A DNA stretch of 64,000 bases from contig OY759675.1 in NCBI GenBank assembly GCA_963662515.1, forward strand, positions 302,405 to 366,404, read 5' to 3'. The notes under the pieces are model-generated. The model made no database searches. It was not told where the DNA came from and was given only the letters and a program-made list of their open reading frames with translations. Below are positions 11,598-14,157 of this stretch, one piece after another; within the stretch, counting starts at the first letter, position 1, and each line of letters starts with the position of its first letter. This stretch comes from Sedimentisphaerales bacterium. Lineage in GTDB: Bacteria; Planctomycetota; Phycisphaerae; Sedimentisphaerales; SM23-30. Position numbers and translations under genes: made by a program.

Positions 11598-12926
11598 TTG
11601 GGTGAAGTATTAACAAATATATGGGACAAGATCCTGCGAACTTTTCAGCAGGAATATAATGCACTCTGGCGTCATTGGTTTGAGCAGTTGGAGCCATTAA
11701 GTCTTGATGGTGGTATATTGCGAATCGGGGTTGCTGAGGAGTCATGGCGTCAGTATCTCAGTTTGCGTTGCAGCGGCGGTCTTACCAGTGCCGCCCAGCG
11801 TATAACGGGTCATTTTGTGACGATCGAATATGCGATGCCGGGCGAGCGGACAGATGCCGACCGTCGCCAGACCAGCGAGCAGGCGGTAGTGCTTGATGCC
11901 AGTGAGATAACTTATTTCAATCCGGATTATACTTTTGATAATTTTGTGGTAGGTCCCAGTAATCGTTTGGCCCATGCTGCCTGTGTGGCGGTGAGTGAGT
12001 CGCCGGGTGAGACCTATAATCCGCTGTTCATTCACGGTTCGGTAGGACTGGGTAAGACCCATATTATGCAGGCTGCCTGTCAGGCATTGAAAAAACGCAA
12101 TCCGGCCTCAAAGATATTGTATCTTACCTGTGAGACATTTGTAAATGATTTTGTGCGTGCCTTGCGTCAGGGTGATCTGTATGATTTTCGGTATAAATAT
12201 CGTTATGTCGATGTACTGGTAATTGACGATATACAGTTCCTTACCGAAAAGGAGCAGTCGCAGGAAGAGTTTTTCCATACTTTCAATAGTCTGTACCAGA
12301 GTCGCAAGCAGATCATCATTTCAGCAGATAGTCCGCCGTCGGAAATACCCAAGCTGGAAGATCGCCTGATAAGTCGATTTAATCAGGGTTTGGTTACCCG
12401 CATAGATAACCCGGCTTTTGAAACGAGAATGGCCATCTTATACAATAAGGCCGCTCTGCGAGGCATAAATCCGCCAGAAGATGTTATCAGTTTTATTGCC
12501 GAGCGTATCACCAGTAATACTCGTGAGCTGGAAGGAGCATTGACTAAGGTTTACGGTTATGCAATGCTGGGCGATGGTAAGATCACAATGGAGCTGGCGC
12601 GTCAGGCATTAGGAGTAGAGTCTATTCCTCGTCATTCGCAGGTAACTATATCTCAGATCATAGATGCCGTTACCACTCATTTTAATGTTAAGCTCAGTGA
12701 CTTGCAGGGCAAGCGTCGCAGTCGGAGTATAGCGTATCCGCGTCAGATATGTATGTACCTGGCGCGTGAGCTCACCCGGCATAGCCTGGAGGAGATCGGC
12801 GGCCATTTCGGCGGTCGTGACCATACAACGGTGATGCATTCATGCCGGAACATTGATAATCTCTGTGATCATGACCCGCAAGTGCGTGACCTGGTAGATT
12901 CACTGGTGGCGAGCCTGACGAAATAA
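11598..12926 (+). CDS. dnaA: Chromosomal replication initiator DnaA (TTG start)
   Basis: YTFDNFVVGPSN, YNPLFIHGSVGLGKTH, DDIQFL, RELEGAL, IGGHFGGRDHTTVMHS. Confidence 0.97.
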   Translation: MGEVLTNIWDKILRTFQQEYNALWRHWFEQLEPLSLDGGILRIGVAEESWRQYLSLRCSGGLTSAAQRITGHFVTIEYAMPGERTDADRRQTSEQAVVLDASEITYFNPDYTFDNFVVGPSNRLAHAACVAVSESPGETYNPLFIHGSVGLGKTHIMQAACQALKKRNPASKILYLTCETFVNDFVRALRQGDLYDFRYKYRYVDVLVIDDIQFLTEKEQSQEEFFHTFNSLYQSRKQIIISADSPPSEIPKLEDRLISRFNQGLVTRIDNPAFETRMAILYNKAALRGINPPEDVISFIAERITSNTRELEGALTKVYGYAMLGDGKITMELARQALGVESIPRHSQVTISQIIDAVTTHFNVKLSDLQGKRRSRSIAYPRQICMYLARELTRHSLEEIGGHFGGRDHTTVMHSCRNIDNLCDHDPQVRDLVDSLVASLTK

Positions 12927-12972: not shown

Positions 12973-14157
12973 ATGAGTCTTAGTGAAATGACATCTGACA
13001 AACAATATCGCCAGTGGCTCATCGATATTAAGCAGCGGATCCGGAACGCCCAGATCAAGGCAGCCGTAGCAGTCAATTCAGCTCTGGTCGAGTTTTACTG
13101 GTCGTTGGGTGAGGATATTGTCCGGAAGCAGGAGCAGGCCGTCTGGGGTAGCGGTTTTTTGCAGCAGTTAAGCAAAGACCTTATGGCAGAATTCCCGGAA
13201 ATGAAAGGGCTGTCGTATAGAAATCTAAGAACGGTTAAGGCATGGTATATCTTTTATTCACAAGGAGATATAATTGGGAAACAACTTGCTTCCCAATTGG
13301 ATGGCCCAGATTTTAACCAGAACAAAACTGCCTGTAAGTTGGAAAATCCATCTGATGATATAATTTGGCCACAACTTGCTGCCAAATTGGACGGCCCAAT
13401 TGCGAAGCAAGTTGCTTCGCAATTAGCTCAGATACCTTGGGGGCACAATATTGCAATCGTCCAGAAATGTGATACGGTGAAAAAAGCACTGTTTTATGTG
13501 CAAATGACAGTAGAGCATAACTGGTCGCGCAGTGTACTGGTTCACCAGATAGAGTCGGGGTTATACGAGCGGCAGGGCAAGGCTATTACTAATTTCAGTA
13601 ATACGCTGCCCGCTCCGATGTCTGACCTGGCCAGAGAGATAATTAAAGATCCGTACAATCTGGATTTTCTCACTCTGGCTAATGATTACAGTGAGCGTGA
13701 ACTGGAAAATGGACTGACGGACCATCTGTCCCGTTTTTTACTGGAGCTTGGTGCCGGGTTTGCTTATGTGGGTAAGCAGGTTCCGCTACAGGTAGGTCAG
13801 CGAGAGTTTTTTCTGGACTTGCTTTTCTATCACATTCGTCTGCATTGTTATGTTGTGATAGAACTGAAGGTGGTGGAATTTGAGCCGGAACATGCCGGGA
13901 AGCTGAATTTCTATATCAAGGCGATAGATGAGCAGTTGCGGGGCGAAGGTGATAAAGCAACTATTGGTATTCTGCTATGTAAGGGCAAGGATAAGGTGGT
14001 GGTTGAATACGCTCTCAGTCAGATCAATAGCCCGATAGGGGTTTCTGATTACCAGCTTACACAGGCTTTGCCAGATGAGCTAAAGTCAAGTCTGCCAACT
14101 ATAGAGCAGATCGAGGCGGAATTCAGTAAACAAGAAAATGAGGATAAAGGAATATGA
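12973..14157 (+). CDS. YhcG/DUF1016 PD-(D/E)xK nuclease-domain protein
   Basis: VNSALVEFYWSLG, IPWGHNIAI, WSRSVL..QI, KDPYNLDFL, LLELGAGFAYVGKQ, DLLFYH...CYVVIELK, GKLNFY. Confidence 0.92.
   Translation: MSLSEMTSDKQYRQWLIDIKQRIRNAQIKAAVAVNSALVEFYWSLGEDIVRKQEQAVWGSGFLQQLSKDLMAEFPEMKGLSYRNLRTVKAWYIFYSQGDIIGKQLASQLDGPDFNQNKTACKLENPSDDIIWPQLAAKLDGPIAKQVASQLAQIPWGHNIAIVQKCDTVKKALFYVQMTVEHNWSRSVLVHQIESGLYERQGKAITNFSNTLPAPMSDLAREIIKDPYNLDFLTLANDYSERELENGLTDHLSRFLLELGAGFAYVGKQVPLQVGQREFFLDLLFYHIRLHCYVVIELKVVEFEPEHAGKLNFYIKAIDEQLRGEGDKATIGILLCKGKDKVVVEYALSQINSPIGVSDYQLTQALPDELKSSLPTIEQIEAEFSKQENEDKGI
13272..13424. repeat. Three 27-bp in-frame palindromes inside the DUF1016 gene
   Basis: 13272-13298, 13362-13388 and 13398-13424; pattern AATT-N6-CAA-N-TTG-N6-AATT, with 12/13, 11/13 and 13/13 arm pairs. 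Confidence 0.9.

Follow-up and report, generated by a model that had tools for sequence, protein, structure and literature searches.

Why should the gene of a predicted nuclease carry, inside its reading frame, three nearly perfect palindromes of 27 bases? The question is raised by a gene of the DUF1016/YhcG family that lies in a stretch of 64,000 nucleotides (nt) from a Sedimentisphaerales bacterium (contig OY759675.1, positions 302,405 to 366,404), hereafter called the window. Here we report that the three palindromes are real at the level of the DNA, that one of them is the local copy of an element present in nearly all genes of the family at one fixed codon position, and that its symmetry reflects a constraint on nucleotides rather than on the peptide, for which template switching is the likeliest cause.

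Three palindromic units in the window gene

The features on which the analysis rests are as follows, in positions of the window.

12973..14157, + strand: DUF1016/YhcG-family gene, 394 aa (Pfam PF17761 and PF06250, PADLOC PDC-S02)
13267..13398, + strand: two 42-nt direct repeat copies carrying units 1 and 2 (repeat search, 86% identical)
13272..13298, no strand: palindromic unit 1, 12/13 paired; extra copy, encoding part of a loop modelled with low confidence
13362..13388, no strand: palindromic unit 2, 11/13 paired; extra copy, in the second 42-nt repeat copy
13398..13424, no strand: palindromic unit 3, 13/13 paired; canonical copy, beginning 40 nt before the W codon (13438-13440) of PWGHN

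Each unit is laid out as 13 + 1 + 13 bases and is scored by its complementary pairs out of 13. Unit 1, AATTGGGAAACAA-C-TTGCTTCCCAATT, encodes the peptide IGKQLASQL; unit 2, AATTTGGCCACAA-C-TTGCTGCCAAATT, encodes IWPQLAAKL; and unit 3, AATTGCGAAGCAA-G-TTGCTTCGCAATT, the only one paired throughout, encodes IAKQVASQL. All three are in a common codon phase (A-ATT..., the hyphen marking the codon boundary) within the open reading frame (ORF), separated by gaps of 63 and 9 nt. A preliminary description of the window had reported the sequences, coordinates, phase and spacing of these units, together with compensated pairs at positions 5/23, 6/22 and 8/20, and all of this is borne out by the sequence. 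The flanks that it described as shared by units 1 and 2 are also present, but they are part of a larger 42-nt direct repeat (copies at 13267-13308 and 13357-13398), which is the trace of a local duplication.

The skeleton AATTN6CAANTTGN6AATT has three matches in the window, against 0.01 expected. As the control proposed with the preliminary description, the window gene was shuffled 2000 times among synonymous codons, with protein and codon usage kept. The shuffled genes had means of 5.7, 6.7 and 5.8 pairs out of 13 at the positions of units 1, 2 and 3; the observed pairing was reached in 2, 6 and 0 of the 2000 shuffles, respectively, and none contained three matches of at least 11/13. Folded as single-stranded DNA, unit 1 reaches -7.5 kcal/mol (z -4.6) and unit 3 reaches -13.1 kcal/mol (z -7.7), while the fold of unit 2 is weaker (-6.4 kcal/mol, z -2.4). 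Since synonymous shuffles fail to give the pairing of the units, the palindromes of the window are real and are not explained by the peptide.

A palindrome at one codon position throughout the family

A set of 73 homologues, drawn from many bacterial phyla and from archaea, contained 107 palindromes with at least 10/13 pairs, the threshold used for this set. About 97 of them are found in the 250 nt that precede the W codon of the PW.H motif, and 91 of these share one frame. Counted over this segment alone, the 73 genes hold 98 palindromes, as compared to 5.5 +/- 2.3 (maximum 12) in synonymous shuffles, whereas the remainder of the genes holds 9, against 10.7 in the shuffles. In 79 of 109 genes, the distance from the start of the terminal unit to the W codon is 31 or 40 nt. 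The number of units per gene ranges from 0 to 6, and a few intact DUF1016 genes carry no palindrome. The palindrome is a family-wide element at a fixed codon upstream of the PW.H codons; unit 3 of the window is its canonical copy, and units 1 and 2 are lineage-specific extra copies.

What is kept is the symmetry and the place, not the sequence. In the two other DUF1016 copies of the source genome, the best palindrome occupies the same position but has an unrelated sequence and encodes an unrelated peptide: GATTCAGTACCCA-G-TGGGTACTGAATT, encoding IQYPVGTEL, and GATAGTGAACGCA-G-TGCGTGCACAATT, encoding IVNAVRAQL. Diverse subfamilies from the phylum of the window likewise have a palindrome at the same site in which both the arms and the centre are wholly different, as in AATTCTGAACGCA-C-TGCGTTCAGAATT and GATTTTTCAGACA-G-TGTCTGAAAAATC, and in a further set 19 of 20 copies score at least 10/13. 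The yhcG gene of Escherichia coli K-12, which was reached by accession because a DNA-similarity search from one distant homologue gave no match in E. coli, carries three units with a 39-nt period at the same codon place and in quite different sequence. The DUF1016 family occurs on hundreds of plasmids and in archaea; in viral contigs only two palindromic matches to the pattern were found, both within DUF1016 genes. The literature that we searched contained no mention of a palindrome or repeat in DUF1016/YhcG, and as far as it shows, the family-wide coding palindrome is undescribed.

One of the two paralogues of the source genome (p2, C1:4003335-4003799) has a TGA at the Trp codon of its SW.H motif in an otherwise open frame of 382 aa, with a 12/13 palindrome kept. 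This copy is either a pseudogene or a candidate for recoding.

A strand-symmetric constraint on the DNA

The covariation of the arms, seen in the preliminary description among three units, extends to the family. When terminal units were defined by anchor position and compared with 500 shuffles, 89.3% of the cells were paired, as against 75.1% in the shuffles, none of which was as high (0/500), and double-change cells numbered 92 against 32. In controls with slid partners, 24-41% of the cells were paired. Arm positions 6-10 are the most variable and the ones that covary, while the outer AATT and inner CAG.CTG blocks are conserved.

The pairing is strictly of the Watson-Crick kind, as expected of template switching: the mismatches in the units comprise 44 G·T, 70 A·C and 156 others, without a bias to G·U. 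It also runs close to the centre, positions 11 and 12 being paired in about 90% of the units and position 13, beside the unpaired centre base, in about 65%. A second reading frame, giving N..T.C..I, is used for the same DNA unit in 52 of 120 close homologues, and the unit in this frame overlaps the next one by AATT, with a 23-nt period. Unrelated peptides such as IQYPVGTEL, ILNALRSEL and IWQTLSAKS are encoded by equally good palindromes. The lack of a G·U excess, the pairing near the centre, the use of two frames and the perfect copies outside genes, described below, together argue for a strand-symmetric cause at the DNA level. The symmetry constraint acts on nucleotides and not on the peptide, as the preliminary description had proposed; the codon shuffles and the reading of one unit in two frames both support this point.

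Exchange of the centre base

The unpaired centre base behaves in a distinctive manner. In the unbiased set, 40 of the good units have C at this place, 29 have G and one has A. Where two units have nearly identical arms (no more than 2 differences in 26 positions; 94 pairs), the centre differs in 53 pairs, always by an exchange of C and G and never by a transition. In the two commonest classes of codon 5 (NCT and NTT), C or G occupies the centre of 82 of the 86 units. The former class encodes Pro in 34, Ala in 30, Thr in 1 and Ser in none, and the latter Leu in 13, Val in 5, Ile in 1 and Phe in 2.

Template switching is known to invert the spacer of inverted repeats (abstract of PMC8604942; PMC5941160), to homogenise their arms (PMC5941160, PMC8794818) and to carry a mutation across from one arm to its partner, so that 'compensatory' pairs arise with no selection involved (PMC8794818). 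The replacement of the centre by its complement is exactly what spacer inversion predicts, and the exchanges of C and G therefore point to template switching. Selection by the protein for Pro/Ala or Leu/Val is an alternative reading; such selection would hardly account for the fast exchange of Pro and Ala within a helix together with the near absence of Ser, Thr and Ile. Because template switching alone yields compensated pairs, covariation is no proof of a selected structure here. Thus, the covariation reported in the preliminary description stands, but the step from it to a selected DNA or RNA structure is insecure, as template switching gives the same pattern.

Copies outside intact genes

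Metagenome contigs were searched with a pattern of fixed ends and centre in which 8 bases were left free. Perfect palindromes made up 97 of the 122 matches, where 1 in 256 is expected, and about 26-34 matches do not fall in an intact gene. Scores of 9-13 were obtained for five copies interrupted by in-frame stop codons, and their mean, 11.4, equals that of 15 intact copies. The palindrome extends outward by 1.63 extra pairs in orphans and by 0.76 in genic copies, a weak trend based on 19 orphans. Extra units also occur just past the stop codon of some DUF1016 genes (L042, L135/L146, L128, L099 and L095) or just before the start (L149, L180, L254 and L264); in the unbiased sample, flanking units were present at 2 of 73 loci.

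The source genome has 8 perfect 27-nt palindromes in all, one of which is an orphan of the DUF1016 type. This orphan, AATTACGAAACAGCCTGTTTCGTAATT at C1:967801-967827 (L084:3002-3028), is preceded by 24 nt of DUF1016-like 5' flank and then by unrelated DNA. It is located between a peptidase gene and a gene for a small membrane protein; the 3' end of the peptidase gene is duplicated about 450 nt away, with an AbrB/PIN toxin-antitoxin pair between the duplicates, so that the surroundings look like an integration scar or island. A second DUF1016 fragment, NLEHTRKWYLFYCQGDTI (L084:1579-1683, minus strand), lies 1.3 kb from the orphan in the small island with the toxin-antitoxin pair. It stops where the first unit would begin, and a terminator-like GC hairpin follows.

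Other palindromes were observed in passing. At L017:2782-2864, three units of a different subtype stand 235-290 nt downstream of a DUF1016 gene at the end of the contig, as part of either a neighbouring paralogue or a flanking array. Near DUF1016 genes of two unrelated genomes (L034:788 and L010:1560), there are perfect or near-perfect palindromes (C/T)T(T/A)AGGTCACAA-T-TTGTGACCT.. that differ in type from the coding unit. Three perfect 27-nt palindromes of the source genome, AATTAAAGGTGTC-N-GACACCTTTAATT at C1:3644673, 3717849 and 3719449, are unrelated to DUF1016 and may be a repeated operator or the end of an element.

Copy-number change and breakpoints at the palindrome

The preliminary description had suggested that the number of units varies between relatives, and this is the case. 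In L248, a syntenic orthologue from another sample that is 86% identical, unit 2 is absent through a 36-nt indel, unit 1 is kept at 12/13 with its mismatch at a different position, and the canonical terminal unit has decayed to 8/13. Across 5426 complete E. coli genomes, alleles have 3, about 2 or 1 units, with three in most. In E. coli O157:H7, a 78-nt in-frame deletion removes units 2-3, and in strain 8479 an independent, frameshifting deletion of 80 nt removes the same units. An insertion sequence (IS) junction, of IS1, lies at nt 385 inside unit 3, and in the E. coli B lineage the gene is cut short at nt 406, on the 3' edge of unit 3, and a transposase gene follows about 90 nt further on. 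The 2015C-3107 and IMT16316 alleles are 93-100% identical to K-12 except at nt ~245-415 (60-68%), and within this divergent patch all changes in the arms of the units are compensated. The palindrome site is a hotspot for gain and loss of units, deletions and IS junctions. In the contigs from runs of two samples of the window's organism, only one form of the stretch was found, rare variants being beyond detection in contigs.

The K-12 gene itself (L237:5828-6955) has Arg (AGG) in place of the motif Trp (TGG) of the other E. coli alleles and of the family, and its unit 1 has a mismatch without counterpart in other strains. The laboratory K-12 allele of yhcG may be defective.

The host gene and its predicted protein

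The protein of the window contains DUF1016_N (PF17761; 1.3e-39, 135.8 bits against a cut-off of 32.8) followed by YhcG_C (PF06250; 3.6e-65, 219 bits against a cut-off of 32.5), both above the Pfam gathering score, which is the arrangement that defines the DUF1016/YhcG family (COG4804). A search with it gave more than 8000 homologues. Residues 18-200 form the N-terminal helical domain and residues 222-375 form the C-terminal PD-(D/E)XK nuclease domain. The PADLOC profile PDC-S02, a phage-defence candidate, matches at 2.3e-154 (511.9 bits), and by this match the gene is a candidate phage-defence nuclease. A nuclease of the DUF1016 type was predicted earlier and likened to archaeal Holliday-junction resolvases (PMC1189080), and DUF1016/YhcG genes are enriched beside type I restriction-modification loci and programmed-inversion loci (PMC9881135).

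The AlphaFold2 model used here was built from 63 sequences (mean predicted local distance difference test score, pLDDT, 75.5); an earlier one from 25 sequences (pLDDT 60.7) was set aside. In the model from 63 sequences, the N domain forms a bundle of helices. The extra units are located in residues 107-132, which have pLDDT below 50, and the peptide of unit 3 forms the helix 142-151 (pLDDT 83-95). Thus, in the model, unit 3 encodes a confidently predicted helix of the N domain, and units 1 and 2 fall in a disordered insert. The preliminary description had suggested a linker made up of such units, whereas the element is a family-wide feature, peculiar neither to this gene nor to a linker. In a Foldseek search, the C domain had its best matches in NucS (2vld, E 4.5e-4) and Cas4 (4ic1), with EndoMS also close, so that the predicted nuclease core has a PD-(D/E)XK fold of the NucS/Cas4/RecB-like kind. 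Foldseek gave no PDB fold match and no DNA-binding fold for the N domain, and a search by sequence found no solved homologue.

One neighbour belongs to this description.

11598-12926: dnaA, directly upstream of the nuclease gene

The nuclease gene begins 47 nt past the stop codon of dnaA, an unusual neighbour for the latter, and L248 likewise directly follows dnaA.

What keeps the palindrome symmetric

The explanation that we favour, and that holds about half of our confidence, is that an ancient coding palindrome is kept symmetric by template switching, is locally duplicated by slippage, and is tolerated by the protein as an adaptable helix or loop. The units of the window would then be copies of an ancient in-frame DNA palindrome of the whole DUF1016/YhcG family, units 1 and 2 being lineage-specific duplicates that would lengthen a disordered loop. 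During replication or repair, the nascent strand would copy one arm from the other; a mutation in a single arm would thereby be reverted or passed to the other arm, yielding a compensated double change that alters two amino acids together, and the unpaired centre base would be flipped to its complement. The protein would accept the resulting peptide while an amphipathic helix ending in Q/K/E plus a hydrophobic residue persists. As a side effect, the site would be fragile and variable in length, with units gained and lost, deletions and IS junctions. The data show the nucleotide-level symmetry across the family, its likeness on both strands, the flips of the centre, the variation in copy number and the breakpoints; we infer that it is template switching that maintains the symmetry, and that a dedicated function need not be invoked.

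Several points weigh against this explanation. The palindrome is retained at a fixed codon across bacteria and archaea despite complete turnover of its sequence, with codons forced and with paired changes in a structured helix, and purifying selection on a functional site would also give such retention. To our knowledge, no other prokaryotic family has been reported with a coding palindrome of this kind, which would be odd if the drive were generic. The extra copies just past the stop codon or before the start hint at a link between the site and the gene. A centre restricted to C or G might also result from a protein that tolerates only Pro/Ala (or Leu/Val) at this residue. The pseudogene set comprises only five, undated copies, and template switching is deduced from its traces, no event having been directly observed.

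The first rival is that the palindrome is a hairpin or cruciform which the gene's own NucS/Hjc-like nuclease putatively binds or cuts, gene and site being one module for autoregulation, self-marking, recombination or mobility. The affinity of the C domain to NucS/EndoMS and Cas4, and the earlier comparison with Holliday-junction resolvases (PMC1189080), would suit such a role. Covariation at the variable stem positions, which needs intra-strand pairing or templating rather than duplex read-out, is consistent with it too, as are the symmetry and position kept across the family, the loose copies of the unit that flank some genes and the rearrangement breakpoints on the units. However, a hairpin has no need of pairing at positions 11 and 12, since its loop takes at least 3 nt, and extrusion of a stem of 11-12 bp requires strong negative supercoiling, which also counts against this role. 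Some intact genes have no palindrome, the canonical unit of L248 has decayed, copies in orphans and pseudogenes are as symmetric as genic ones, and template switching explains every mark at the DNA level equally well. We therefore regard a site of the nuclease as possible but unlikely. Improbable in our judgement is its fuller version, in which DUF1016/YhcG genes carry, in frame and sometimes at their ends, a putative structured site of their own NucS/Hjc-like nuclease and form a self-contained DNA-transaction module. A nick or cut at the extruded palindrome would then lead to templated repair or gene conversion that diversifies the adjacent helix and linker segment, with short silent fragments, like the two in the source genome, as possible donors; on this view an enzyme, and not ordinary replication errors, would have produced the symmetry, the flips at the centre and the clustering of rearrangements. 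A duplex operator for a dimeric reader (the YhcG N domain or a host factor), acting for instance as a roadblock to transcription by which the level of a toxic nuclease is held down, would fit the perfect dyad through the centre, the conserved outer AATT and inner CAG.CTG, and the centre and ends that units within one gene have in common. Yet the covarying positions 6-10 are the most variable ones, and a duplex reader that ignored them would not require covariation; moreover, the arms differ among units of one gene, the centres are entirely different between subfamilies, and Foldseek gave the N domain no match to a DNA-binding fold. We consider an operator very improbable.

A hairpin in the messenger RNA, controlling translation, pausing or stability of the nuclease message, might be suggested by the stable predicted stems and by the place of the units, which belong to the transcribed strand and immediately precede the motif of highest conservation. 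It has little probability in our estimation: G·U is not tolerated (44 G·T against 70 A·C mismatches), for which reason the RNA structure allowed for in the preliminary description is not favoured; the symmetry runs into the would-be loop; and copies persist in orphan, non-genic and pseudogene contexts. A search of Rfam 15 gave no family match, only chance matches to microRNA and small nucleolar RNA models far below gathering scores. Equally small is the probability we give to small mobile or recombination elements, similar to repetitive extragenic palindromic (REP) sequences, attC sites or silent conversion cassettes, that would insert at AATT and exchange the last N-domain helices plus linker. 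Such elements could account for the AATT that neighbouring units share at a 23-nt period, the two frames, and the orphans in defence islands and at gene ends; the two fragments of the source genome cover exactly the segment NL..WYLFY..GD.I (+unit), which is also the only divergent patch between E. coli alleles. Against them stand the single orphan in a genome of 4.28 Mb, which has no dispersed family, the absence of any recombinase or HUH gene seen linked to the units, although no genome-wide search for HUH genes was made, the correlated identities of the N and C parts (r 0.72) without gross mosaics, the stop codon created by inversion between units 1 and 3 or 1 and 2, and the scarcity of flanking units (2 of 73 loci sampled without bias). 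Finally, a repeat of the peptide whose codons are self-complementary by chance is of negligible probability. Codons for Q (CAA) and L (TTG) are indeed mutually reverse-complementary, and the linker background in shuffles is slightly raised (5.5 matches per ~250 nt in 73 genes), but unrelated peptides are found on equally good palindromes and the units are read in two frames. The shuffles refute this coincidence both in the family (98 against 5.5) and in the window gene (2, 6 and 0 of 2000).

Further candidates were tried and rejected. Programmed inversion of the shufflon type is contradicted by the stop codon that follows the 1-3 or 1-2 inversion and by the single form in the contigs of two samples; shuffling of N and C modules, by the correlation of their identities (r 0.72) without strong outliers. 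Half-site searches for targets elsewhere in the genome gave chance matches, matches to the protein motif DLGTEF (FecR-like genes) and one gene remnant. The memory-like array of the preliminary description finds no support: it falls short in information content, as only about 5-6 bp vary per unit, and elsewhere in the genome the arms matched nothing beyond chance apart from one gene remnant.

If template switching alone keeps the symmetry, the palindrome of YhcG would be the plainest example in nature of a palindrome that sustains itself through deep time while setting the sequence of a protein, and a warning that covariation need not prove a selected structure. If the palindrome is functional, it would offer a first handle on what the YhcG nucleases act on. 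The element explains the frequent rearrangement, truncation and length variation of yhcG, and it places a conserved nucleic-acid feature inside the ORF of a very common prokaryotic family, where it can be tested in laboratory E. coli.

Comparison with known systems

The YhcG unit shares traits with several described classes of palindrome and differs from each in other traits. Coding inverted repeats of an organelle genome (2019, PMC6649704) are likewise perfect and in frame, with both arms coding and with protein and DNA symmetry kept together. They reach 284 bp and are numerous, in many genes of one organelle genome, whereas the YhcG palindrome is a single 27-bp unit at one codon position of one prokaryotic family across phyla and, unlike those repeats, shows sequence turnover and local change of copy number. 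Short perfect inverted repeats under template switching (Lavi et al. 2018, PMC5941160; Monttinen and Loytynoja 2022, PMC8794818) have homogenised arms, compensated changes without selection and an inverted spacer, and the C-G centre flips and strictly Watson-Crick arms of the YhcG units fit this class. Those repeats, however, are mostly in non-coding DNA or RNA genes and were followed over short evolutionary distances, and no family-wide coding palindrome is reported there.

REP sequences and bacterial interspersed mosaic elements (BIMEs), with their REP-associated tyrosine transposases (RAYTs), are also short hairpin-forming palindromes tied to a particular gene, which they sometimes flank, and are targets of IS and rearrangement. 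REPs are intergenic, with tens to hundreds of dispersed copies, and are accompanied by an HUH Y1 transposase; the YhcG unit lies in an ORF of a PD-(D/E)XK gene, has about six copies in the genome, and has one orphan there (C1:967801) in place of many dispersed intergenic copies. The palindromic elements of Rickettsia, which Ogata et al. reportedly described in 2000, are said to be inserted in frame in genes and to add peptide segments. They are 100-150 bp long, genus-specific and present in many unrelated genes, as opposed to 27 bp, one family and a fixed position for the YhcG unit.

The attC sites of integrons are likewise imperfect palindromes whose structure is conserved over their sequence, at the 3' ends of cassettes, and in a few YhcG genes a unit directly follows the stop codon. 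At 57-141 bp, with extrahelical bases, attC sites are single-stranded substrates of IntI and never lie in an ORF, and no integrase is linked to the YhcG units. In a CRISPR-like array, constant repeats would alternate with variable spacers, and these would have matches in foreign DNA; here it is the units that vary, coding sequence of 63 and 9 nt fills the gaps between them, and the arms match nothing else in the genome beyond chance save one gene remnant. Nor do the units resemble a programmed-inversion locus, since inversion 1-3 or 1-2 gives a stop and one form is present in the contigs of two samples, or a structured RNA described in Rfam 15.

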